A program made the translations under genes and the position numbers. The notes under the pieces were generated by a model. It made no database searches. It worked only from the letters and a program-made list of their open reading frames with translations, and was not told where the DNA came from. A stretch of DNA of 64,000 bases from Acutalibacteraceae bacterium (GTDB taxonomy: Bacteria; Bacillota; Clostridia; Oscillospirales; Acutalibacteraceae). Below are positions 5,474 to 36,463 of this stretch, one piece after another (positions within the stretch are counted from its first letter, which is position 1; every line of letters begins with the position of its first letter). The stretch is from the NCBI GenBank assembly GCA_045578985.1, contig JAZNLH010000040.1, forward strand, positions 990 through 64,989. The letters run 5' to 3'.

Positions 5474-6166
5474 TTAATTTTTCATTCCTTTGAGTGCTGT
5501 CATAACAGCTTCTTCAGACATATCACAAGACATTTCATAAATAGGTATATCAGAAAGAATTCTGTTCAGTGTTTCAAGCATATCTTTCATAAGCTCCTTG
5601 TCATAAGGGCGAACAGTTTGATCCATAAATAGTTTCAACGCCTTTATTCCGGGAATTCTTTTAATTTTATTTTCGCCACGTGACAAGAAAGTAATACCCG
5701 CAATCGGTACACCTTCATTAACACTTTCATCCGTTTTACCACTCCAGGGTGTACCGTAAGCATAAAACACTCCATCAACCAGTCTTATGGCAGGTTTATC
5801 ATCGTTAATAATACGAGCACCGGGCAAATATTTTAACCATAAATGTGTATGTGTAGACTTTCCTGTTCCTGAACGCGCCGAAAACAAATACGCCTTGCCC
5901 TCATATTCAACACAAGATGCGTGTAACATTACGCCATTAAATTTTGCAAGTCTTTCATAAAAATGAGCACCACTCCAAAGATATTCTGCCTCACCTTGAG
6001 TTAAGTTAAGATGCTCCGCTTGCCTGTCTATATAATACTGTTCAGAAACACAAAAAACAATATCTGCATCTTCATCGCCATCATATTTGTAGGGTTCAAC
6101 ACGAGATAAAAGCAAATCGTTATGAATATTCAGTTCAACAATTAAATCAGCTGTTTTAATCTTCAA
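5474..6166 (-). CDS. HPr-kinase-like P-loop protein (HprK C-terminal-domain fold; substrate unknown)
   Basis: 230-aa ORF with a TTG start and a strong AGGAG SD 7 nt upstream. Walker-A-like SARSGTGKSTH sits mid-protein after HASCVEYEGKAYLF, the layout of HprK-related kinases. There is no N-terminal HprK domain. Confidence 0.5.
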   Translation of the reverse strand: MKIKTADLIVELNIHNDLLLSRVEPYKYDGDEDADIVFCVSEQYYIDRQAEHLNLTQGEAEYLWSGAHFYERLAKFNGVMLHASCVEYEGKAYLFSARSGTGKSTHTHLWLKYLPGARIINDDKPAIRLVDGVFYAYGTPWSGKTDESVNEGVPIAGITFLSRGENKIKRIPGIKALKLFMDQTVRPYDKELMKDMLETLNRILSDIPIYEMSCDMSEEAVMTALKGMKN

Positions 6167-6589: not shown

Positions 6590-6991
6590 TTAGTCTCCTA
6601 TGAAAGTAACCTCAACATCAACGCCCAATTCTTTCGCTCTTTCTATGCAACTGTAATAAATGGTAGTTTCTGTGTTTTTTATCGCTTTATTTATGTCGCT
6701 GTTATAAAATCGTAATAATTTATAACCTTCATTTTGTAAATATTCATGACGACGTTTTTCGTATTTCAAGTTATCTTCAAGATAATGTTGAACGCCGTCT
6801 ATTTCAATAACAAGTTTCAACTTAGGACAATAAAAGTCAACTATATATGAGCCGATTATCTTTTGCCTTATAAATCTTGGTTTTATTCTTTTAAGATACA
6901 GATGCCATAATTTATTTTCTTCTTCGGTTGGTTCTTTGCGCATCTCTCTGGCTCTGTCTACTAATATGTGGGTTATACCTTGATTTTTCAT
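6590..6991 (-). CDS. DUF559 (Vsr/restriction-endonuclease-like fold) domain protein
   Basis: 133 aa. Family pattern ARE-x-RK-x-PT-x-x-E-x-x-LW...F-x-RQ...Y-I-x-DF-x-C...L-x-IE-x-DG-x-x-H. The sequence here reads AREMRKEPTEEENKLWHLYL...FIRQKIIGSYIVDFYCPKLKLVIEIDGVQH. Confidence 0.85.
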   Translation of the reverse strand: MKNQGITHILVDRAREMRKEPTEEENKLWHLYLKRIKPRFIRQKIIGSYIVDFYCPKLKLVIEIDGVQHYLEDNLKYEKRRHEYLQNEGYKLLRFYNSDINKAIKNTETTIYYSCIERAKELGVDVEVTFIGD

Positions 6992-7019
6992 TGTTTTTTC
7001 TTCTCTCTGGATGGTGGGT

Positions 7020-7108
7020 AACAGATAAAGAACTACCCACCACCACGCTTGCGCGCGGTCCCCCTCCCTATTTCATCGCAGATGAAACAGGGATGATAGG
7101 CTTCGCTT
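7020..7108 (-). repeat. Diverged fifth copy of the 103-bp unit, inverted relative to the array, 29 bp upstream of the DUF559 ATG
   Basis: The plus strand reads AACAGATAAAGAACTACCCACCACCACGCTTGCGCGCGGTCCCCCTCCCTATTTCATCGCAGATGAAACAGGGATGATAGGCTTCGCTTT. This is the reverse complement of the unit with a 4-nt expansion in the second hairpin. An extra hairpin, GGTGGGTA-N13-TACCCACC, lies at 7013-7041. Confidence 0.9.
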
Positions 7109-7323
7109 TATTTTTACTTGTTTTCTTATTTCAATTCATCGTAAACGACAAACTCAAATAAAAAAACAATTAAAATTAACACATTACGATTTTTGCATTT
7201 TATATCACACAAGCCGAGGTTTCCCTCGGCTTGCGGTTTTTTAGTTGATTAAAAGATGTCTTTCACCCTCCGCCCCTGCGAACAGGAGCGGAGTTTCAAG
7301 TAACTTAACCGACTAAGTTGGGA

Positions 7324-7428
7324 TTAATACCAACCGTCGTTGATGTCACCAGTACCAATAGAAAGAGTGAGTACATCTTCGAGCTCGAACTCCATGATTT
7401 CGAGCTCAGGTGCTGTGTATTTTTTCAT
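7324..7428 (-). CDS. Small ORF A, 34 aa: MKKYTAPELEIMEFELEDVLTLSIGTGDINDGWY (RiPP-precursor-like peptide)
   Basis: ATG at 7428 with an AGGAG SD 9 nt upstream; TAA at 7324-7326. It shares FEL[ED]DVLTxS with ORF B while using different synonymous codons. Hairpins lie downstream at 7268-7293 and 7210-7235. Confidence 0.55.
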   Translation of the reverse strand: MKKYTAPELEIMEFELEDVLTLSIGTGDINDGWY

Positions 7429-7469
7429 TCAAAAATACTCCTTTCAGTATTCATAAAAGTAATTGAATG

Positions 7470-7637
7470 TTACTGGAAAAAGTCTGACCAGGGAATAGTG
7501 GGATCTTCATTGGGATAAGTTACACCTTCCGGTAAAGTTGCCGGTTCGGTAGTAACTACTGATGAGTTTGTTAAAACATCATCCAACTCAAAATATACTA
7601 TTTTAAAATCAGCTTTTTCGTAAGCTTTCGAAATCAT
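7470..7637 (-). CDS. Small ORF B, 55 aa: MISKAYEKADFKIVYFELDDVLTNSSVVTTEPATLPEGVTYPNEDPTIPWSDFFQ (paralogue of ORF A in its N-half)
   Basis: This is the in-frame distal part of track ORF 7470..7793. The ATG at 7637 lies 4 nt after the stop of the 370-aa gene, so translational coupling is possible; there is no clear SD. The leader motif is conserved with ORF A. Confidence 0.45.
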   Translation of the reverse strand: MISKAYEKADFKIVYFELDDVLTNSSVVTTEPATLPEGVTYPNEDPTIPWSDFFQ

Positions 7638-7641
7638 TAAA

Positions 7642-8754
7642 TTAAGCAAAAATGTCAGCCATACCTGCTGCAACTGCGTTGTCATATGTTGTCTTAGCAT
7701 CAAGCTCAACCCATTCAGAATATACATAAGAACCATCTGTCTTAAGTACATAAGTTCTGATTTCGATTGTGCTTGTAAGAGCATTTGCACCAACAGATGT
7801 TAAAGCAGGAAGGAACTGGAAGCCGCCCTGTACAGTTTCAGATGCTGCACCATCTGTGATGCTACCATTTAAGTAGATCTTAGATGCTGTGCTGCTCTGT
7901 GTAACGCCATCAACCTTAGCTTCGATACCTACACCTGCGATACCGCAAGCATTGCTATCAACTGTGTAACCACAGATTGTCTTACCGTCACCACCGTAAA
8001 CAGCTTTAACTGTTACAGCCATATCGGATTTACCGATGTAACCAAGATCAACAGCAGAGCCGTTAACTCTGATCTTACCTGTAACTTTCTCAAGTGCAGC
8101 TACGCCAGGTTTAGCAACAGCTTCTGTAAGAACAACATTAGCGGCATCATATGCAATACCTGCGGTTGTTGATTCAGTAAACTGTTTGAAGTTAAAGAAG
8201 TTTGAGCCCAAAGCACCTGTAACAACACCGATTGCGTCAGCTTCAGTAAGTGTTTTAAGAGTTGTAAACTGAAGAGTAAAGAGTTCACAATCAGTTTCTA
8301 CAGGATAACCAGTTTTGGTTGTGTATTCACCACCAGAGAGCTGAGCTTCCTGAATCTGAACACCTGCGTTCCAACCATTTGCTTTATCAGCATCGTTAAA
8401 TTTCTTAACGATGTTGTTAGAAATAGTTGTCGCACCATTACATGTAGTACTTACAGTTTTGAAAACATCCTGATAAAAACTACCCCATGCGAATGAAGAA
8501 GTATCAACTGAATAAGCTGTATTGTCATAGCCGAGAGAAATGTTTGCAAATGTAAGCTGAACTTCTTCCCCTTCAGGAATAAGAAGTGTTGCTTTTACAG
8601 TTACAACAGTTCCAGCAGGTGCACCAACAACAGCATCAGATTCAATCTTGATACCAATTTGACCTGTTGTAAGGTCCGCAGCATTTGTAGAGAATGCAAA
8701 GATAGACACAAGCATTACAACTACAAGTGCTACACTTAAAATTTTCTTGGACAT
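7642..8754 (-). CDS. Secreted protein with cohesin-like beta-sandwich signature; function unknown
   Basis: Signal peptide MSKKILSVALVVVMLVSIFAFSTNA. The segment GAPAGTVVTVKATLLIPEGEEVQLTFANISLGYDNTAYSV ... CELFTLQFTTLKT resembles cohesin modules by pattern only. GGAGG SD is present. Confidence 0.5.
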   Translation of the reverse strand: MSKKILSVALVVVMLVSIFAFSTNAADLTTGQIGIKIESDAVVGAPAGTVVTVKATLLIPEGEEVQLTFANISLGYDNTAYSVDTSSFAWGSFYQDVFKTVSTTCNGATTISNNIVKKFNDADKANGWNAGVQIQEAQLSGGEYTTKTGYPVETDCELFTLQFTTLKTLTEADAIGVVTGALGSNFFNFKQFTESTTAGIAYDAANVVLTEAVAKPGVAALEKVTGKIRVNGSAVDLGYIGKSDMAVTVKAVYGGDGKTICGYTVDSNACGIAGVGIEAKVDGVTQSSTASKIYLNGSITDGAASETVQGGFQFLPALTSVGANALTSTIEIRTYVLKTDGSYVYSEWVELDAKTTYDNAVAAGMADIFA

Positions 8755-8786: not shown

Positions 8787-9896
8787 TTATAAAATTGCGA
8801 TAATATCACTGATTATGATACGACCAGTATCATCGTTCAACATATATGCGTCATGAAGTTCAACGTCACCAGCGTCGATAGCGTCTGCTGCTCCATCGCC
8901 GTTAACGTCGCCTGCAAACTCTTGGCATGCAAGAAGACGACCAGTCTCATCGTTCAACATATATGCGTCATGAAGTTCAATGTCACCAGCATCGATAGCA
9001 TCTGCTGCTCCATCACCGTTAACGTCACCAAAAATTATGAGAACATAACTTTCAACTACGTTACCATCAAGATCAAGAACATTAACCATTGCACCTGTGC
9101 CAGCATCTGAACCAGCATCTGAAGAAATAACCTCTAAAGTACCGTCGCCAACGACCTCGAATATGGTATCAACTGTATCACCTGCATCGGGATCCAAACC
9201 ATAAACGTAACCATCGCACTCAATACCATTATCGGCATCTATTGTTGTTCTTGTAGTATCGATAACACCGATAGTGCCGTCGATAACAGCAAGTGTGGGA
9301 GGTTCAGTAGCGCCGCCGATAACTACGGAGTTACCTGCGTCAACTGTCTGACCTGTGATGGGGTCACCTGTAACAAGGTTATCATCAGTTACACGAGCAG
9401 CGATAAGAGAACCGCCAACGTTTGTTGCAGATTTTGCATCATCTTCAATAGCGATTGTTGCAGAACCTGAACCGCTGTAGCTGTAAACAACAGTAGCGAT
9501 AACGCCATCGATTGCAACAGCTTCGATTGTAGCAACGCTTGATGTATCATATAAGAACATCACTTTGCCTTTTGTTTTGTTAACGCTGATAGTAGCGTTA
9601 TAATCTTCGGGAATAGCATCACCGATTGTAACAGACTGAATAGCTGCTACGGATGTGTCAGTGTTTGTGAGAACGAACTGGATAGGACCTGTTGCGTAGT
9701 TTGTTGTAAGAGAAACATCTACGGTATAGGTACCGTCGCCGTTGTCAACGGGCTCACTGAGTGCCCAAGTCTGTGTGTAGTTAGCTGCATCTTCTTCTGA
9801 TTCATAGTAGTAAGCAGCATTTGCTGTCATAGCAAACATAGAAACTACCATCATAAGAGCAATAACAACACTAAGAAGTTTTCTTGTCTTTGACAT
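8787..9896 (-). CDS. Secreted cohesin-like protein with a C-terminal tandem dockerin-like duplication (2 x 39 aa)
   Basis: Signal peptide ...MFAMTANA. Cohesin-like block GPIQFVLTNTDTSVAAIQSVTIGDAIP...GKVMFLYDTS...GVIATVVYSYSGSGSATIAI. The C-terminus has two copies of GDVNGDGAADAIDAGD[IV]ELHDAYMLND[ED]TGR, an EF-hand-type DxNxDGxxDxxD loop. Confidence 0.6.
   Translation of the reverse strand: MSKTRKLLSVVIALMMVVSMFAMTANAAYYYESEEDAANYTQTWALSEPVDNGDGTYTVDVSLTTNYATGPIQFVLTNTDTSVAAIQSVTIGDAIPEDYNATISVNKTKGKVMFLYDTSSVATIEAVAIDGVIATVVYSYSGSGSATIAIEDDAKSATNVGGSLIAARVTDDNLVTGDPITGQTVDAGNSVVIGGATEPPTLAVIDGTIGVIDTTRTTIDADNGIECDGYVYGLDPDAGDTVDTIFEVVGDGTLEVISSDAGSDAGTGAMVNVLDLDGNVVESYVLIIFGDVNGDGAADAIDAGDIELHDAYMLNDETGRLLACQEFAGDVNGDGAADAIDAGDVELHDAYMLNDDTGRIIISDIIAIL
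8821..9029 (-). repeat. Tandem 117-bp-period DNA duplication encoding the two dockerin-like segments
   Basis: 8821-8912 and 8938-9029 are about 93% identical (6 mismatches in 92 bp). The period is 117 bp, or 39 codons. Confidence 0.9.
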
Positions 9897-10330: not shown

Positions 10331-13300
10331 TTAAGCAATAACTTTGTTAACAACTGCTGTGTAGTCAGCGCCTGCGATTTCTTCAGTAGCTGTGTCGAGG
10401 TTAGCTGCGATGAAGTAGCAACCTTCGAGCTGAGCATGTTCGTTAGCTGTAAGCTCTGTAAGAGCAGCGTCAAGAACGTCAAGAGCACCGTCACCGTTTA
10501 CGTCAGCGTCAACAACAACCTTAACTGTAGCAACGGGAACCTTAACACCACTTACGAGTGTGTAGAATGTAACTGTTGCGTTTGTACCTGTGAATGCTTC
10601 AAGGTCAGTATCAATTGTGTAGTTAACGTCGTTAGAAACTGTAATAAGGTCTGTTGTTACATTTGCGCTTGTTGCAGTTGCGCCAAGAAGAGCCTTAACT
10701 GTGTCTGCATCAAGTTCGGGAGCAATTCTTGCAACAGAAGCTGTGATAGCGGGAACATCGTTAACCTTATCTTCAGGAACGATTGTTTCTGTAGCAATGT
10801 TAGCACCTGTAATGTTGAGGCCTTTGAATTTAAGTCTTGCAAGAGCTTCTTTAAGTGCTGTAGCAGCTCTGTCAATCTTATACTGTTCATCTTCTGCATA
10901 AGGTTCTGAGTTCTCATGAAGAGCTGAACCGGGGAAGAGCTGAACCATGTCACCGTCTGCATTTTCAAGGTCTACATAACCGAGTTCTGCAAGAACCTGA
11001 CCGATTTCTTTAGCTGTGTTGTCGTAAAGGCCTGTGTTAGCCATTACCTGCTGAGCCTGAGCAATAAGTGCTTCAAGTTCAGAATAGTCTGCTTCGTCTT
11101 CAACCAATACGAGCTCGTTACGAGCAATCATGAGGTTGTACTTAGCATCAAATACTGTCATCTGAGTGGGGTTAGCAAGAACAGCCTTAGCTTCGTTGTA
11201 AGCTTCGATATACTTAGCCCAGCTACGTGCTGTGTAAAGGCTCTGTGCACCAACCATATTGTCTGCAGATGTGATTTCGTCTGCAAGGAATGTTGTGATA
11301 ACACCATGATCTCTAGCAAGAAGACGATCAGATGTTCTTTCGACAAGGTTAGCAGCCATTTCAACGTCAAGAAGTGTCTGTGACTGATACTCAAGTTTCT
11401 TGTTCTTGAGCCAGTTTTCAGTTTCCTTGATTGCGTTTTCATCCTTTTTCTCAAGAAGAGCAAGGATGTATCTTTCGTACTGATCACCTGCTACGAGAGC
11501 TCTGAGGTCATCTTCGTTGATCCATGTGTAGGGGAAGTCTTCGTCGATTTCATCAACTGTTGCGTTAGAAGCATCGTTCTTAAGGTTGATGTAGTACTTA
11601 GCATCGTTACGAGCATCGTTGTAACGGTTCCATCTATACATCTTATAATCTGTATAGTCGTAAGCGTCACTCTTTGCTGCTTCGATAGCATCAACGTCTG
11701 CCTTAAGAGCATCAACAGCAGCGTCAATGTTGTCACCGTTGCCTTCTGCAACAATCTGTGCTGTGCCCTTCTTACAGTAACCAACGTCGTTTGAAGCAAC
11801 TTCAAAAGCTTCATAAAGAGCCTGGAAGTTATAAACAGTGTTAGCGTTGAAAGCCTGCATACCGCCGCGGATACCGGGAACGATGTTTGCAACATAGTTT
11901 GAAATAGCAGTAGCGCAGTCGATAACTGTTACTTTCTTAACAGCGATTTCTTCGCCGTCAACTGTTACAGTACCGTAGTTACCTTCTTCATCAGTTGTAG
12001 TAACAGCAGATGCAGCATACTCAGTAACTGTTTCTGTAACTGTAGAGCCGTTAGCATCTGTGTAGCTACCTGCCCACTTGTTTGCATCTTCGTTAGCAAC
12101 CCAAGCAGTTGTTGCGAAGTTAGTATCACGAAGAACTCTTTCGCCGTCTTCATCAGTTGTTTCAGCTGATTCAAGAACGCCGTCAGTGTAATATTTACCT
12201 GTAAGGTTGTAGTCAGCTGCAAGTCTTACAGCATCCATTTCTTCTGCTGCGAGTGATGTAAGCTTGTTGTAGTAAACATCATCGTAGTAGTAGAGAGTAA
12301 GGTTGTGAGGACCGTTATTTGTGCCCTTAGCTGTCAATGTAATTGACCATGTTGATGATGAACCGGAAGTCTTGTTAGCAGCTTTCCATGTAGCTTCATT
12401 AACACTACCGCTAATTGTAAGAGCATTACCGGAACCGGACTGTTCGTCACCGTCTTCATTAGTTGCCTGTACGGTATATGAGTCGAACTGTCTGAGGTCA
12501 TTGAAGTAACGACCACCTGAAGAGTTAGCGAATGTCATTGAAACGTTACCGAATGTGATACCGTCAACTGTTGGTGTAGCAGCTGTAATAGCACCCTTCT
12601 GATTAGATGTGAAGAGCTTATAATCACGACCGAATTTACCTGTTACGATTCCGGGGATGTAATCCACAGCTGTTGAAAGGGGAACATAGCGAGGACCGTA
12701 GATGGCTGCATAAGTAAGTGAGCCATTGTTGTTGAAGTATGTTTCCTGACCTTCGTTTGTGGGGTTGTAGTTAAGCCATGCGTAAGATTTAGCATAGAAT
12801 GTCTTACCGTTAGACATTGCGTTGCCGTCTTCATCATAAACTTTATAACCAACCTCAAATCTTACAAGAGCACCGCCTGTACCAACGCCTGTTGCATTGT
12901 AAGTGAAGGTAGCTGACTGACCGTAGTCGATCTTACCTGTGTCATAACTTGCAATTGAAACATATGCTGAAGCGCCGTCACCAAGTTCATCATAAGCCTT
13001 AACGCTTACAAGCTGAATCTGGTACTGGTTATCAGTATATTCGTTACCTGCTGCGTCTCTGTAGTGTCTCCATACACCATTTGAAGCGTTACGAACATTA
13101 ACTGTCTGAGTTGCTGTTGTAGCACCGTTTGTAAGGTCAACAGATCTTGAAAGTGAAATCTGAGGAGTATTGAACTCCTGTTCTGTACCCCAGCCCTTGA
13201 TAAACATACCAACTACGGGAAGTGCACAGTTAAGAAGGTCTTCTGCCTGAGTGTAAAGAGCTCTGAGAAGCTGCTGAACAGTAATCTTAAGGTTAGCCTG

Positions 13301-15742
13301 TGAAACTACTGTATCAAGGTTTCTTGAATCTTCGCCCTGAAGAAGATTTGTGTAACCGTCACCATTTCCTTCGATGGGAAGAACAAGGTTTACAATATCA
13401 TTTACGAGAGTGAGAACAACTGTGATAAGGTTCTCATCATCAAAGATATTGTAAGAAGAATCCTGGTTTCTACCGAAGAGAGATGCAATTTCGGCAAGGT
13501 CAAAGCTTGTAAGGAATGCTTTTACCTTATCAAAGAGCATTGATACGTCGAAATCCCAAGAATCAGATGTACAACCACAAATAAAACCGAGAGGAAGAAG
13601 TGTGTTGAGAACATAGCTGAATTTATCAAAGGGATCGTTATAAGCAGCAAGTTTAGTGGGTTCGAAACCGTGGATAACGCTTGCTGTACCGTCGCTTACA
13701 TACTCAGCAGCCCATGTAACAGCAGCACCGAGCATATCTTTCCAACGAGTTTCTGTGATTCCCTGTGTGGGAATAGCTGTGTTGAAGTTTGTGATGTTGT
13801 TAAGGTATGTGTAACCAACATCGACACCCATATTAAGGATGATGTTGAACCATGTTTCAGCATCATTTGTTTTGAACTGTCTGTCGTTAGCAGATGTTAC
13901 ATTGCCGTTTGCGAAGATGTAAGCATCATAGTTAACGTTAGGAGCGATTTCAGTAATGAATTCACGGAGAACAAGAGCACCGAATTCAAGAAGCTGAACG
14001 CCTTCGTGGAATGCATAAGTACCGTCAGCATTCTTAGGCATAATAAGCTGGGGCATTGCATCCTCAAAGAGAACGGGACCAATGATAGCGATGATGTCGA
14101 TGATAGATTTATCAGCAACATCGGCATATTCCCATGCAACATAAGGTGATGAAGAACCGAAGATTTTATCAGCATGTTCAGCGAGAAGATATTTAAGAAG
14201 ACGTTCTGCGTTGTTCATGAGCTGTTCTGTTGTAGGACCATCTACCCAGTAGTCACCTGTTAAATCTGCAAAGTAATCCTTAACATCCTGCTTAACTGCT
14301 GTTTCGAATACAACATAAAGAAGGTGGTTAAGAGATTCCATGATTGAACCGTATTCTTCAATAAGAGCTGCATAGTTAAGAGCAGCAAGGTTTTCTAAAC
14401 CGAATTCAGCTGAAGTAGCTTCATCTGTTAACGGTTCGGGAGCAACGAATTCCCAACCGAAGTCTATGAGCTGGAAGAAATCGTTAGCTGTTGCTGTGTT
14501 AGCTTTGAAGTACTTACGAACTTTTTCTGTCTGTTCTTCGCCGTCTGCACCAAGAAGAGGTTCACCGTCGTCACCAACGATTACTTCTGTTTCCATTGTT
14601 GTGTAGTACCAGTCAGAACCGAAGCTTGCGATATTGTCGTAAGCGATGTAAGTAACGTATGTTTCTTTGCCGTCTACTGCATCAACTTCGAAGTGTGTTG
14701 CAACGTCAGCGGGAAGAGTTGCAGGATCGATTTCGTTGAACTCAACTTCAACAGCTTCCATAAGAGCTTTCTTAAGGTTGTTGTTGAGAGCACCGACACC
14801 GAGGTCATAAATAGCAAAGGGAGCAAGCTTGTCGATAAGCTGGAAGAGGCTGTTCTTATCAGCTTCACCGTCGCCATCATAGTCAGTGGATGAACCTGTA
14901 ATGCTGAAGTAATCCATTACAGTGTCAATGCCGTACTTAGCAACTGTGGGCATAAGAAGTGAATCCATGTTCCAGACTTTCTTAGCAGCTTCGCCTTCAC
15001 CTTCCCAAGAATAATCCTGGGGATAAACAAGAAGACCGCCGATAGCTCTGTTAGCGATTTCGTTAAGAGAGTCAACTTCTGTAGGAAGTGTGCCGAGTTC
15101 TTCAGCATTCTTATCGTAACCGTAAGAGCCGTGGATAAGCAAGTCATAAACCATTTCTGTAAGCATCAACGGAATGTTTGAAAGCATATCGCCGATATCG
15201 CCAAGGTCAAGGAAGTTACCGATAAGACCAAGGCTAACACCGGGGTCGCCAGTTAAACCGTAAGCTGCTTTAGAAAGAATGTTTGAGTTGTTATCGTTAC
15301 CGATGAACTCAAGAAGAGCTAAGACAACGTTAATATCACCGTGTTCTCTCTTGTAAGCTGTGTGAGAACTGAATGTACCGAATGAACCACTTTGAAGAAG
15401 AGGAGAGAAGTCCATGTCGCCAAGGTCACCGAGAAGACCGGAACCGATAGTCCATGCGAAAGAGTCTCTCAAACTACAGATATCTTCAAAGATATTGTCA
15501 ATCTTGTTAAGTCTGAGCTCACCAAGAATTGAAAGGTCGATAGTTTCCATACCTGCAAGGAGATCGTTATCGACCAAGTCGAGAGCAAGGTCAGCAACCT
15601 GTTCAGGTGTAAGCTGTGCATCGTCGATGTTATCCCAAGTAACTTCACTCTTAACGAGTGCTGCGTTACCGATAACTGTCATGCAGCTGAAAGCCATAAC
15701 AAGAGCAAGAACCAAACTCAACAATTTAGTTGATTGTTTCAT
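10331..15742 (-). CDS. Giant (1803 aa) secreted protein with a C-terminal dockerin-like module and FIVAR-like helical segments; no catalytic domain recognised
   Basis: Signal peptide MKQSTKLLSLVLALVMAFSCMTVIGNA and a GGAGG SD. The C-terminus DADVNGDGALDVLDAALTELT...AANLDTATEEIAGADYTAVVNKVIA has the two-segment dockerin layout. YTARSWAKYIEAYNEAKAVLANP is FIVAR-like. The ORF is uninterrupted for 5.4 kb. Confidence 0.75.
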   Translation of the reverse strand: MKQSTKLLSLVLALVMAFSCMTVIGNAALVKSEVTWDNIDDAQLTPEQVADLALDLVDNDLLAGMETIDLSILGELRLNKIDNIFEDICSLRDSFAWTIGSGLLGDLGDMDFSPLLQSGSFGTFSSHTAYKREHGDINVVLALLEFIGNDNNSNILSKAAYGLTGDPGVSLGLIGNFLDLGDIGDMLSNIPLMLTEMVYDLLIHGSYGYDKNAEELGTLPTEVDSLNEIANRAIGGLLVYPQDYSWEGEGEAAKKVWNMDSLLMPTVAKYGIDTVMDYFSITGSSTDYDGDGEADKNSLFQLIDKLAPFAIYDLGVGALNNNLKKALMEAVEVEFNEIDPATLPADVATHFEVDAVDGKETYVTYIAYDNIASFGSDWYYTTMETEVIVGDDGEPLLGADGEEQTEKVRKYFKANTATANDFFQLIDFGWEFVAPEPLTDEATSAEFGLENLAALNYAALIEEYGSIMESLNHLLYVVFETAVKQDVKDYFADLTGDYWVDGPTTEQLMNNAERLLKYLLAEHADKIFGSSSPYVAWEYADVADKSIIDIIAIIGPVLFEDAMPQLIMPKNADGTYAFHEGVQLLEFGALVLREFITEIAPNVNYDAYIFANGNVTSANDRQFKTNDAETWFNIILNMGVDVGYTYLNNITNFNTAIPTQGITETRWKDMLGAAVTWAAEYVSDGTASVIHGFEPTKLAAYNDPFDKFSYVLNTLLPLGFICGCTSDSWDFDVSMLFDKVKAFLTSFDLAEIASLFGRNQDSSYNIFDDENLITVVLTLVNDIVNLVLPIEGNGDGYTNLLQGEDSRNLDTVVSQANLKITVQQLLRALYTQAEDLLNCALPVVGMFIKGWGTEQEFNTPQISLSRSVDLTNGATTATQTVNVRNASNGVWRHYRDAAGNEYTDNQYQIQLVSVKAYDELGDGASAYVSIASYDTGKIDYGQSATFTYNATGVGTGGALVRFEVGYKVYDEDGNAMSNGKTFYAKSYAWLNYNPTNEGQETYFNNNGSLTYAAIYGPRYVPLSTAVDYIPGIVTGKFGRDYKLFTSNQKGAITAATPTVDGITFGNVSMTFANSSGGRYFNDLRQFDSYTVQATNEDGDEQSGSGNALTISGSVNEATWKAANKTSGSSSTWSITLTAKGTNNGPHNLTLYYYDDVYYNKLTSLAAEEMDAVRLAADYNLTGKYYTDGVLESAETTDEDGERVLRDTNFATTAWVANEDANKWAGSYTDANGSTVTETVTEYAASAVTTTDEEGNYGTVTVDGEEIAVKKVTVIDCATAISNYVANIVPGIRGGMQAFNANTVYNFQALYEAFEVASNDVGYCKKGTAQIVAEGNGDNIDAAVDALKADVDAIEAAKSDAYDYTDYKMYRWNRYNDARNDAKYYINLKNDASNATVDEIDEDFPYTWINEDDLRALVAGDQYERYILALLEKKDENAIKETENWLKNKKLEYQSQTLLDVEMAANLVERTSDRLLARDHGVITTFLADEITSADNMVGAQSLYTARSWAKYIEAYNEAKAVLANPTQMTVFDAKYNLMIARNELVLVEDEADYSELEALIAQAQQVMANTGLYDNTAKEIGQVLAELGYVDLENADGDMVQLFPGSALHENSEPYAEDEQYKIDRAATALKEALARLKFKGLNITGANIATETIVPEDKVNDVPAITASVARIAPELDADTVKALLGATATSANVTTDLITVSNDVNYTIDTDLEAFTGTNATVTFYTLVSGVKVPVATVKVVVDADVNGDGALDVLDAALTELTANEHAQLEGCYFIAANLDTATEEIAGADYTAVVNKVIA

Positions 15743-19342: not shown

Positions 19343-20881
19343 TTGAATAACCGCGTTGCTCTCGAATGCAGAGGTATAACGAAAACATTCGGTGAAGTTG
19401 TTGCCAATAAAAACGTTAATCTGTGCGTTCATCGTGGGGAAATTCTATCTATTTTGGGCGAAAACGGAAGCGGAAAAACCACCTTAATGAATATGATATC
19501 AGGAATTTACTTTCCTGATGAGGGTAGTATTTTCGTTGATGGCAAGGAAGTCACAATCCGTTCACCAAAGGATGCTTTTAATCTTAAAATCGGCATGATT
19601 CATCAACATTTTAAACTTGTTGATGTTTTTGACGCGACCGAAAATATTGTTTTGGGTATAAGCGGCAAAAAGTTCAATATGAAACTTGCAAACAAGGAAA
19701 TCCGCGAAACCTGTGACAAATACGGCTTTGAGATTGATCTTTCAAAGAAAATTTATGATATGAGCGTGTCTGAAAAGCAGACAGTTGAAATCATAAAAGT
19801 TCTTTACAGGGGCGCCGATATTCTTATCCTTGATGAGCCTACGGCAGTTTTAACCCCTCAGGAAATACAAAAGCTTTTCAATGTTTTGCGCCGTATGCGC
19901 GACGACGGAAAGGCAATCATAATTATCACCCACAAGCTTAACGAGGTGCTTGAAATTTCCGATAAGGTTTCTGTTTTGCGTAAAGGTGAATATGTGGGAA
20001 CAGTTGAAACAAAGGACTCTACCGAACAAAGTCTTACAGAGATGATGGTAGGTGAAAAAATCAGCCTTGATATCAACAGACCAATGCCCCACGATACTGT
20101 GGACAGACTTGTTGTTAAGGGCATAGACTGTTATAACTCCGACGGAGTTAAAGTTCTTGATGACGTATCGTTTGTTGCAAAAAGCGGTGAAATACTTGGT
20201 ATTGCAGGTATTGCCGGTTCAGGTCAGCGAGAACTTCTTGAGGCTATTGCCGGACTCCAGAAAATCAGTGGCGGTGAGGTTATTTACCACGACCCAAAAA
20301 CCAACAACGCTGAAAATTTGCGAAACAAAACGCCTATTGAAATCAAAAACTTAGGTGTGCGCCTTTCTTTCGTACCCGAAGACAGATTGGGTATGGGCCT
20401 GGTTGGTAATATGGGCATCGCAGATAATATGATGCTCAGGAGTTACCGTAAAGGTAAGTCAATGTTCCTTGAACGCAAAGAACCAAAAAAACTCGCTAAT
20501 AAAATTATTGACGAACTTAATGTTGTTACTCCAAATGCCAACACCCCCGTCAGAAGGCTTTCCGGCGGTAATGTTCAGAAAGTTCTTGTAGGCCGTGAAA
20601 TCGCCGCTTCACCCACAGTGCTTATGGCGGCTTATCCCGTACGCGGTCTCGATATTAACTCTTCTTACACAATTTATAACCTTCTTACCAAACAAAAAGA
20701 AGAAGGTGTTGCAGTTATTTTTGTTGGCGAAGACCTTGATGTTCTTCTTGATTTGTGCGACAGAATACTTGTTATCAGCGGCGGCAGAGTTACAGGTATT
20801 CTTGACGGCAGAACAGCTAAAAAAGAAGAAATCGGTATACTTATGACGAAATCTACCACAACTAAAAAGGAGGGTAATTGA
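19343..20881 (+). CDS. ABC transporter ATP-binding protein with two fused ATPase domains (BMP-type nucleoside/sugar importer)
   Basis: TTG start. Walker A motifs GENGSGKTT and GIAGSGQRE, signature LSGGNVQK and Walker B ILILDEP. Confidence 0.9.
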   Translation: MNNRVALECRGITKTFGEVVANKNVNLCVHRGEILSILGENGSGKTTLMNMISGIYFPDEGSIFVDGKEVTIRSPKDAFNLKIGMIHQHFKLVDVFDATENIVLGISGKKFNMKLANKEIRETCDKYGFEIDLSKKIYDMSVSEKQTVEIIKVLYRGADILILDEPTAVLTPQEIQKLFNVLRRMRDDGKAIIIITHKLNEVLEISDKVSVLRKGEYVGTVETKDSTEQSLTEMMVGEKISLDINRPMPHDTVDRLVVKGIDCYNSDGVKVLDDVSFVAKSGEILGIAGIAGSGQRELLEAIAGLQKISGGEVIYHDPKTNNAENLRNKTPIEIKNLGVRLSFVPEDRLGMGLVGNMGIADNMMLRSYRKGKSMFLERKEPKKLANKIIDELNVVTPNANTPVRRLSGGNVQKVLVGREIAASPTVLMAAYPVRGLDINSSYTIYNLLTKQKEEGVAVIFVGEDLDVLLDLCDRILVISGGRVTGILDGRTAKKEEIGILMTKSTTTKKEGN

Positions 20882-34895: not shown

Positions 34896-35403
34896 AAAAA
34901 AATTAATAACTTTTGCTGAAGTTATTGTAAAAAAACTCAAAGACAATAATTTATCTCTCGGGCTTGCCGAATCCTGCACAGGCGGTTGGTTAAGCAAAAT
35001 CATAACCGATGTCAGCGGTGCTTCCGCCGTTTACAATGGTGGTATTTGCTCATATTCAAACGAAATCAAAGTTAAACTTCTCGGTGTTAAGGAAGAAACT
35101 TTGCGTTCTTTCGGTGCTGTAAGCGAACAAACAGCATATGAAATGGCAAATGGTGCAAGAAATGCTTTAAATGCTGACATAGGTGTCGGTATAACCGGGA
35201 TTGCCGGTCCTGGATCCGATGACACTTCAAAGCCCGTTGGTCTTATTTACGTAGCGGTTTCCTATAAGAATAAAACCGTGGTAAAAGAATTACGTAACAA
35301 TTTCCAGACAGATATCAGATTAAACAACAGACTTTCCGCTTTGGAATCAGCGTTAAGTCTTTTAGCCGATATATTTTCAGGTGATATAAATGAAAAAAAA
35401 TAA
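34888..35403 (+). CDS. CinA-family protein (PncC-type nicotinamide-nucleotide amidohydrolase domain only)
   Basis: AESCTGG motif and GITGIAGP. The start was set at the ATG at 34888, which overlaps the thiI stop. Confidence 0.8.
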   Translation: MNEKKLITFAEVIVKKLKDNNLSLGLAESCTGGWLSKIITDVSGASAVYNGGICSYSNEIKVKLLGVKEETLRSFGAVSEQTAYEMANGARNALNADIGVGITGIAGPGSDDTSKPVGLIYVAVSYKNKTVVKELRNNFQTDIRLNNRLSALESALSLLADIFSGDINEKK

Positions 35404-36463
35404 AAAAATACAAGATTCTCCCTACATTTACTTTCAAAATGCAGAAGAAACTGTTACACGAACAGATGAAACTCAAAAGAATGCTATTTCAAAAATAATT
35501 AAAAGAAAAAAACTGAAAAAGACAACTTTCAATGTTATTTCTTTTATTCTTATTTTTGCAATTGTTATCTCTTCGCTGTTTTTGGGAAAAAGAGGTATCG
35601 AAAAATTCCTGGTTTTAAGGCAGGAACAAAAGCAACACGATTCTTCTACCCTTCCGGAAGACGTAATGAAAGAACTTGAGTCTATGTCGGAAGAAGAAAA
35701 GTGGGCATATCTTTACGAGCAATATCCCGAACTTATAAATGTCAAATTCCCTGCGGGAATCCTTTGCGACTATGCTCTTTACTACGCCAATAACCCTGAA
35801 ACTATAGGATACATAAAAATTGATGGCACAAGAGTTAATTCTCCTGTTGTTCAGGCAGATAATAATAAATACTATCTTAATCACGACTTTTACGGAAAAA
35901 CAACAAGTTACGGTGCAATTTACGCATCCTACAAACACAATTTTGAACCCTTTGACAGAAATACACTTATTTACGGCCACAATATGACTGATGGTTCGCG
36001 TTTTGCCGAACTGCTCAATTACAGAAATATTGATTTTTTCAAAAAGCATCCTGTTATTCAGTTTGATTCACTCTTTGAAAAACATTTATGGAAAATTTAC
36101 GCCGTAGTTATTACTAACGGCTCAACGGAAAGTGATAACGGATATTTCTTCGATTTCACATTCAACCATTGTTCCGATGCTTGTTATGAAGAATACATCG
36201 AAGAACTCGATAAAAGAAAACTTTATGATACAGGTGTTGACCTTTTACCTACAGACACCATTATAACTCTTTGCACTTGCACTTACGAATACGATGATGC
36301 AAGATTAATAGTTATTGCCCGTATGGTGCGTGATGGTGAAAACCCCGATGTTGATGTAAATCTTGCATCAATGAAATCTACTCCTGTAAAATATCCTGAT
36401 TCTTACTACGAAAATCCCAATGAAAACCCATATAAGAATGATAAAAAATTCTATTTGTATTAA
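35390..36463 (+). CDS. srtB: Class B sortase with extended N- and C-termini
   Basis: TM anchor, YGHNM (His) and TLCTCTYE (TLxTC catalytic Cys). At 357 aa it is longer than typical SrtB. Confidence 0.75.
   Translation: MKKNKKIQDSPYIYFQNAEETVTRTDETQKNAISKIIKRKKLKKTTFNVISFILIFAIVISSLFLGKRGIEKFLVLRQEQKQHDSSTLPEDVMKELESMSEEEKWAYLYEQYPELINVKFPAGILCDYALYYANNPETIGYIKIDGTRVNSPVVQADNNKYYLNHDFYGKTTSYGAIYASYKHNFEPFDRNTLIYGHNMTDGSRFAELLNYRNIDFFKKHPVIQFDSLFEKHLWKIYAVVITNGSTESDNGYFFDFTFNHCSDACYEEYIEELDKRKLYDTGVDLLPTDTIITLCTCTYEYDDARLIVIARMVRDGENPDVDVNLASMKSTPVKYPDSYYENPNENPYKNDKKFYLY

Follow-up and report, generated by a model that had tools for sequence, protein, structure and literature searches.

Two small open reading frames (ORFs), ORF-B and ORF-A, lie in tandem on the minus strand of a 64-kb stretch of an Acutalibacteraceae genome (contig JAZNLH010000040.1; the whole stretch is called the window below). 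They are real, conserved coding genes and belong to a large Clostridial peptide family, whose full clusters contain five maturation genes. We consider it probable that both encode LppA-type precursors from a Clostridial branch of the linear polyphosphorylated peptides (LPP), and that they are matured as proposed below with partners encoded elsewhere in the genome. LPP are peptides made by ribosomes and modified after translation (RiPPs) that were described for Bacilli (Popov et al., Nat Commun 2026, May; PMC13381572).

In Paenibacillus alginolyticus DSM5050, the lpp cluster consists of LppA, LppB, LppK, LppS, LppD, and LppN. LppB, the RiPP recognition element (RRE), binds the YxxP leader, and the published precursors carry [Y/W]xxP. 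LppK adds several phosphates to core Ser3. The signal-peptidase-I-like LppS cuts after Thr-1 and requires LppB to do so. LppD acts as the export pump, and LppN showed no activity in the test host. The class was drawn from 126 clusters, mostly in Bacilli genomes, and its final product was not identified there (PMC13381572).

Two conserved coding genes with a common leader

Both ORFs translate exactly as originally predicted. Direct reading of the sequence bore out the ATG of ORF-B 4 nt past the TAA of the 370-aa gene, the AGGAG (7442..7438) 9 nt ahead of the ORF-A ATG, and the gapless alignment of the two peptides at an offset of 2. In their common block, F-E-L-x-D-V-L-T-x-S, six of the eight identical residues use different synonymous codons. 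ORF-A consists of the leader MKKYTAPELEIMEFELEDVLTLS, almost invariant in its clade, and a hypervariable acidic, Gly-rich core with the end GWY. ORF-B starts with MISKAYEKADF..FELDDVLTNS and continues through a Pro/Thr-rich linker to the conserved C-terminus PWSDFFQ. The leader motif reads Y4-T-A-P7-E-L9 in ORF-A and Y6-E-K-A9-D-F11 in ORF-B. Thus, ORF-B has YxxA where most relatives have YxxP, the same Ala-for-Pro exchange as in 9% of the superfamily described below.

Homologues of ORF-B were found in 88 clusters of 54–94 aa. These have MISKAYEKADF..EF..EDVLT.S.VV(H)TT in common, followed by a Pro/Thr-rich linker of variable length, and most of them terminate in [WYF]SDFFQ. ORF-A was queried as two tandem copies, a single copy being too short for the search tool. 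This query yielded about 50 homologues with an almost invariant 22-residue N-terminus, MKKYTAPELEIMEFELEDVLT. Their tails of 10–20 residues are hypervariable and rich in Gly, Asp, Glu, and Asn, and a Trp is kept near the tail end (GWY, DDWA, WVDAE, WKDFE). The original prediction had described both C-halves as hypervariable. This holds for ORF-A, but the last residues of the ORF-B C-half are conserved in most of its homologues. One ORF-B homologue (P0047, 94 aa) carries a long acidic linker, a C-terminal transmembrane helix, and KKKAN in place of the WSDFFQ end; it could represent either a variant anchored in the membrane or an artefact of assembly.

Scanning one genome per species returned 30 loci, all in animal-gut metagenome-assembled genomes of uncultured Acutalibacteraceae, Eubacteriales, or Clostridia. 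When these were combined with the loci fetched earlier and the window, the B-then-A pair was intact, uninterrupted, and adjacent in 32 distinct loci, with a spacer of 35–43 nt. In the ORF-B leader, the amino acids are fixed and the synonymous sites vary; the ratio of nonsynonymous to synonymous polymorphism (pN/pS) over codons 1–11 is 0.007, not near 1. The large protein of the upstream gene cassette is 44% identical between the window and the sister locus L007 (fetched loci are numbered with the prefix L), and the ORF-A leader is unchanged there. Pfam and NCBIfam scans of both peptides gave nothing useful, the sole match being a weak one to YydF (E 0.11). A literature search for the two peptide strings found nothing.

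We also considered that a conserved RNA or DNA element at the 3' end of the operon, such as the palindrome in ORF-A, is what selection maintains, and that the ORFs are incidental. Such an element would account for the ORF-A leader DNA, in which even the synonymous sites hardly vary and a perfect 9-bp inverted repeat is embedded. The synonymous sites of this repeat are almost frozen across about 30 species, and synonymous diversity is 0.18 in the ORF-A leader versus 0.59 in codons 12–30 of ORF-B. However, ORF-B and the distant ORF-A-like genes of L005 and L008 lack the repeat and encode the peptide motif by other codons. In addition, the 2,225 peptide homologues described below have intact reading frames, and an Rfam scan of region 6900–8000 matched no family. 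An exclusively non-coding element is hardly credible on these grounds, and it was rejected along with the chance-ORF reading and the lasso-peptide reading discussed below.

The repeat may still act in addition to the coding sequence. The RNA hairpin predicted in these ORF-A codons has a free energy of −12 to −18 kcal/mol over a 36-nt stretch. Within the ORF-A clade, the stem shows only two synonymous changes, both C-to-U substitutions that keep G.U pairs, and the loop shows one further synonymous change. In three loci, a Phe-to-Ile change removes one closing pair of the stem. Considering the near-frozen synonymous sites and the G.U-keeping stem changes, the predicted hairpin therefore seems to be under selection besides the peptide. 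It may tune the expression of the last gene of the operon.

A peptide superfamily and its maturation genes

A profile of the common N-terminus (alignment A2) was searched against 1.84 billion cluster representatives (E<=1e-3). It matched 2,225 representatives, almost all of them peptides of 30–70 aa with this N-terminus. The consensus is M-K-K-Y-x-x-P-E-(L/M)-E-I-x-x-F-x-x-E-D-V-(I/L)-T-(T/A)-S, followed by a variable tail. Among 231 superfamily peptides, conservation reaches 97% for Tyr, 91% for Pro (Ala in 9%), 97% for Phe, 100% for Asp, 92% for Thr, and 99% for the final Ser. An independent profile, made only from unrelated 'EDVITTS' peptides of other Clostridia, gave 48 bits for ORF-A and 22 bits for ORF-B, as compared with 5.3 bits for the best of 400 shuffles. 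The leader-like N-half proposed for the two peptides is thus common to them beyond chance. Pfam and NCBIfam hold no model of the superfamily, and the few source names that were examined read 'hypothetical protein'. A search of the peptide profile against solved structures gave only a chance 'DVITTS' match.

The neighborhoods of superfamily members revealed the maturation genes. In L041 and L042, the peptides adjoin genes for a PqqD-family RRE, a PF14907 NTP_transf_5 protein, an ScmC/HprK-like kinase, a peptidase, and an MsbA-like ABC exporter. The order peptide(s)–PqqD–NTP_transf_5–ScmC/HprK-like–S26-like peptidase–ABC recurs in L041, L042, L047, L065, L076, L092, L109, and others. The best NCBIfam match of the cluster PqqD protein is NF033530, the lasso-type PqqD chaperone, and its best solved relative is TfuB1 (6JX3). 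The peptidase, of about 144 aa, is S24/S26-like with a weak signal peptidase I match. The small Clostridial peptidases are homologous to the characterized LppS (E 1e-12, 4e-9), with the catalytic Ser, His, and Asp in alignment. Another 80 loci came from a metagenome scan. Among the 13 metagenome loci flanked by 5 kb or more on each side, seven have at least three of the five maturation genes; among the 47 loci with 1.5 kb or more downstream, 26 have at least one. Literature searches on PF14907 and ScmC returned noise or nothing.

This family and cluster context supports the assignment of ORF-A and ORF-B as RiPP-type precursors in which a conserved leader precedes a variable C-terminal part. 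It also supports the reading of the YxxPxL-like motif as an RRE-type recognition motif, as relatives adjoin PqqD-family RRE genes and the published LPP precursors share [Y/W]xxP (PMC13381572).

In the window itself, the original prediction had found no maturation gene. It was right about a lasso cyclase, an RRE/PqqD protein, a radical SAM enzyme, and a peptidase, but it overlooked an HprK-like kinase gene on the same strand, 1.16 kb downstream of ORF-A, which is the sole LPP maturation homologue in the window. The kinase matched TIGR04249 ScmC (E 4.6e-7) and the family hidden Markov model (HMM; E 1e-94), and it shares 31–39% identity with the kinases of the full clusters (E 1e-36 to 1e-39). 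A sequence search against solved structures gave no match. The stretch from ORF-A to the kinase gene is occupied by a DUF559 endonuclease-like gene (6590-6991, minus strand). Other species have nothing at this spot or, as in L006, a protein with a weak IS200-like match, so that it looks like an insertion hot spot. The kinase gene follows ORF-A by only 180–230 nt in the sister species L018, L023, and L029.

We extended the downstream comparison to the window and all 32 fetched clade loci with at least 1.2 kb of downstream sequence. The window and 32/32 loci carry a kinase or an LppS homologue among the first same-strand downstream genes, 0.12–1.8 kb away, and none carries both. The kinase version occurs in the window and 10 loci, and the LppS-homologue version in 22 loci (21 distinct, as L032 duplicates L004). 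The latter is a 560-aa LppS–NTP_transf_5 fusion in most cases; eight loci have only the peptidase, and in L012 the fusion is disrupted. Among species, the kinases are 58–88% and the full-length fusions 63–82% identical, and the catalytic motifs have been retained. The fusion gene lies directly downstream of the ORF-A homologues at 8499-10184 in L004 and 11897-13576 in L006, and it is also found in L007, L011, L021, L022, L024, L028, L031, L033, L035, and L036. Its N-terminal ~145 aa are 45–52% identical to stand-alone LppS-like peptidases.

A different fusion was observed in L121 (5429-7489), where a 686-aa ABC exporter bears an N-terminal LppS-like peptidase domain. The layout is similar to that of peptidase-containing bacteriocin exporters, but the domain is of the serine signal-peptidase type. 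Since the peptidase is fused to the ABC pump, the protein suggests that leader cutting is coupled to export.

The chemistry is most likely that of the published Paenibacillus system, on the analogy of which we base the following proposal for RRE binding, phosphorylation, leader removal, and export. The N-terminal ~16–23 residues would serve as the leader, and Y-x-x-P/A-x-(L/F) would dock as a beta-strand onto a small PqqD-type RRE. The predicted contacts are Y4/P7/L9 in ORF-A and Y6/A9/F11 in ORF-B. The HprK-like kinase would phosphorylate the near-invariant Ser (S23 of ORF-A, S25 of ORF-B) once or several times. A signal-peptidase-I-like serine protease would then take off the leader, and an MsbA-like ABC pump would export the linear peptide. 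An NTP_transf_5 enzyme may add further decoration. In a profile–profile alignment, which is weak, 'FET|' of Bacilli falls on 'FEx' of Clostridia, and the ORF-A cut would accordingly be FEL|EDVLTLS. The cleavage site is not transferable from Bacilli, and FEL|EDVLTLS or a position after T21 are the candidates.

Several results weigh against the assignment to LPP. The 64-kb window lacks an RRE, a signal-peptidase-I-like peptidase, an NTP_transf_5 protein, and an MsbA-like exporter, and within 10 kb no RRE or exporter turned up in any sister locus. Nearby maturation genes are missing from about half of the well-flanked superfamily members. The Clostridial HMM gives no score to LppA of Bacilli, and profile–profile comparison with 15 LppA sequences was weak but consistent, with a 3-residue gap (P 0.001–0.007, probability 5–20%). 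The leader spacing YxxPE.EI..F..EDVITTS differs from YxxPxVLxHQxIxFETxxS, and ORF-B has Ala at the position of the RRE-contacting Pro. In the published LPP system, a Pro-to-Ala change in the leader weakened RRE binding (PMC13381572). The only ABC match in the window is the ATPase of an importer (19343-20881), and the remaining window genes are housekeeping. The simplest reading is that the RRE, the protease, and the exporter are encoded outside the window, because the flanking enzymes are intact and conserved and about half of the well-flanked members are orphans, too.

The original prediction had raised lasso-peptide precursors as a hypothesis. In such precursors, the leader would be RRE-bound and cut after Thr-x, and the N-terminus of the core would be cyclized onto an Asp or Glu at positions 7–9. 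The YxxPxL-type motif and the Thr two residues before a Ser do resemble lasso leaders, and Ruminococcus lasso precursors have a similar leader, MTYNKPSFEKISSFKESTM. Moreover, paeninodin-type lasso clusters likewise contain HprK-like kinases and NTP transferases. The motif with its Thr is present in ORF-A but is common to LPP precursors, too, and the Leu-to-Thr spacing is 12 in ORF-A as compared with 10 in the lasso consensus. Neither class-defining enzyme was found. An asparagine-synthetase-like cyclase was absent from every window ORF of at least 150 aa and from the gene lists of L040–L042. The transglutaminase-like B2 protease was found neither in the window nor in the full clusters, which contain instead the signal-peptidase-I-like protease, a hallmark of linear LPP. 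The window also has no radical SAM gene. The acidic residues at core position 9 in ORF-A and 7 in ORF-B, which had been taken as possible ring-forming sites, are uninformative, since Asp and Glu abound all along the cores. A lasso fold is thus very unlikely.

Secreted-protein operon and a possible surface role

In the window, the precursors are the last genes of a conserved five-gene cassette that starts with the 1803-aa gene. In the loci with listed genes, the cassette places secreted proteins of ~1800 aa, ~370 aa (cohesin-like plus dockerin), and a very divergent ~360 aa before the pair. The 370-aa gene and ORF-B are probably co-transcribed and translationally coupled, because the stop of the former is only 4 nt before the start of the latter. 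The dockerin-type Ca-binding repeats and the weak cohesin-like match in the operon's proteins point to a surface assembly resembling a cellulosome or amylosome in this bacterium. None of the three secreted proteins had a match in sequence searches against solved structures. A sortase-domain protein is encoded at 35390-36463, ~28 kb from the peptide genes.

Elsewhere in the superfamily, precursor genes also directly follow genes of signal-peptide proteins. In another branch, five of these upstream proteins have a common C-terminal domain of ~100 aa (37–62% identity). This domain had no Pfam match in the one member that was scanned (from L042), and it was undetectable in the proteins of the window. 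We tested whether the upstream secreted proteins form one family across the superfamily, and they do not. Lipoproteins of ~145–155 aa encoded beside precursor genes end in DDGL(D/N)WSPL.P(V/I)(N/E), as does the core of the neighboring precursor; for example, a lipoprotein end DDGLNWSPLVPVE stands beside a peptide core DDGMNWSPLTPIE.

These contexts raise the possibility that the peptides are unmodified small partners of the co-transcribed secreted proteins. Their N-terminus would then be an export or docking signal, WSDFFQ and GWY would bind cohesin/dockerin-type proteins, and the kinase or peptidase would be a relic. The tight coupling of the peptides to three secreted proteins in every locus fits this proposal, as do the signal-peptide protein genes ahead of peptides in the wider family (with the ~100-aa domain in five) and the adjacent lipoproteins that end in the core motif. 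The conserved C-terminus of ORF-B is unusual for a RiPP core, and no RRE or exporter is nearby. However, the downstream kinase and peptidase(-transferase) genes have stayed intact and are conserved across species, which would not hold for relics. Export of a peptide that lacks a signal peptide still requires the leader-dependent exporter, and a modification site is the best explanation for the near-invariant Ser beside the leader. Because the flanking enzymes are intact and conserved, we judge this alternative improbable and prefer LPP-type precursors.

For LPP-type precursors, a role at the cell surface is probable, because they are co-transcribed with three secreted dockerin/cohesin-type proteins. 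This is a hint rather than evidence of mechanism, and it agrees with the location of LPP clusters in capsule loci (PMC13381572). As a tentative extension, which we consider possible but doubtful, LPP-type peptides of gut Clostridia may be rapidly diversifying parts of cell-surface assemblies and not free antibiotics. After phosphorylation and export, they would bind or attach to dockerin/cohesin-type proteins or envelope polymers through their aromatic C-termini, and the motif-sharing lipoproteins would reach the same site via Sec. If true, this would be the first biological role for the LPP class.

Downstream of the LppS–LppN fusion gene, L004, L006, and L007 carry a Wzz/tyrosine-kinase gene and then a type IV pilus-like set (LysM/secretin-N protein, T2SSE, and T2SSF, with PilM in L004 and L007). 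The pilus adjacency was dropped as a clue; the window has no such genes.

Two stem-loops lie beyond the precursor genes. The G+C-rich one, read from the sequence, is the likely end of the operon transcript, although the terminator scan gave it no score. The second one received a terminator score on the plus strand and may work in both directions, because an A-tract lies on its other side.

Table 1. Positions of the precursor genes, their neighbors, and related features (window coordinates unless a fetched locus is named)
Feature	Position	Strand	Description
ORF-B	7470..7637	-	55 aa, MISKAYEKADFKIVYFELDDVLTNSSVVTTEPATLPEGVTYPNEDPTIPWSDFFQ; probable LPP-type precursor paralogue
ORF-A	7324..7428	-	34 aa, MKKYTAPELEIMEFELEDVLTLSIGTGDINDGWY; probable LPP-type precursor
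ORF-A ribosome-binding site	7438..7445	-	GAAAGGAG; kept in all related loci
Perfect 9-bp inverted repeat	7381..7407	-	ORF-A codons 8-16; GAGCUCGAA-N9-UUCGAGCUC, arms 7407-7399 and 7389-7381
G+C-rich stem-loop	7268..7293	-	~30 nt past the ORF-A stop; short T run ~12 nt further
Second perfect stem-loop	7210..7233		Terminator score on + strand; A-tract on other side
HprK-like/ScmC-like kinase homologue (LppK-like)	5474..6166	-	230 aa, Walker-A-like P-loop SGTGKST
370-aa secreted protein	7642..8754	-	Signal peptide, no known domain
369-aa secreted protein	8787..9896	-	Weak cohesin-like match, C-terminal dockerin
1803-aa secreted protein	10331..15742	-	Signal peptide, weak FIVAR match below the Pfam cut-off, dockerin-like C-terminus
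Proteins with the ~100-aa domain	L042 3533-4033; L047 5701-6963; L049 6402-8327; L069 8488-9252; L106 8999-9982
Core-motif lipoproteins	L042 4236-4688; L047 7175-7606; L049 8532-8999; L069 9547-9981

Comparison with known systems

ComX-type polymorphic pheromone precursors resemble ORF-A in combining a conserved N-terminal part with a short hypervariable C-terminal one and in keeping a Trp close to the C-terminus. In contrast, no ComQ-like prenyltransferase or ComP-like sensor is encoded nearby, and the ORF-A leader belongs to an RRE-dependent family. We regard this as a resemblance only.

The paeninodin- and pseudomycoidin-type phosphorylated lasso peptides of Bacillota combine RRE leader recognition via [Y/W]xxP, an HprK-like Ser kinase, and tailoring by an NTP transferase (PMC7533575, PMC13381572), and all three features have counterparts in the Clostridial family. 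The differences lie in the macrolactam cyclase and the transglutaminase-like B2 protease, which are absent here. Paeninodin-type precursors also have a WxxP leader and are phosphorylated at a C-terminal Ser, whereas ORF-A and ORF-B end in Tyr and Gln.

The closest known system is the LPP class of Bacilli. In both cases, small precursors with a conserved YxxP leader and a variable C-terminus occur in one to three copies per cluster, and a conserved Ser stands just past the leader. The clusters of the ORF-A and ORF-B relatives carry the identical five genes (RRE, HprK-like kinase, signal-peptidase-I-like peptidase, NTP transferase, and MsbA-like pump), with a peptidase that is homologous to LppS and keeps its catalytic triad. 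Cell-envelope or polysaccharide genes are also near in both, with an LCP transferase and sugar-modifying enzymes in the window and the Wzz/tyrosine-kinase gene in sister loci. The Clostridial precursor family appears not to have been described in the LPP paper, because Clostridia are nowhere in its main text and the supplement places a few Clostridial peptidases in minor network clusters, with the precursor field 'ND' in the rows examined (PMC13381572).

The two peptides thus open onto a much larger, probable LPP branch in gut and rumen Clostridia. Its leader profile would let annotators find thousands of precursors that are now missed. The branch differs from the LPP of Bacilli in its hosts and its size (2,225 representatives versus 126 clusters), and it has its own leader consensus, YxxPE(L/M)EIxxFxxEDV(I/L)T(T/A)S as compared with YxxPxVLxHQxIxFETxxS. 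It also shows arrangements that are unreported for Bacilli and hint at a role on the cell surface. Precursors end surface-protein operons, as they do in the window behind three secreted dockerin/cohesin-type proteins, and the clusters are split into kinase-only or peptidase-only versions, so that only the kinase adjoins the precursors of the window. Further differences are the fusions of the peptidase with the transferase (LppS–LppN, in sister loci) or with the exporter, and the lipoproteins that copy the core motif.

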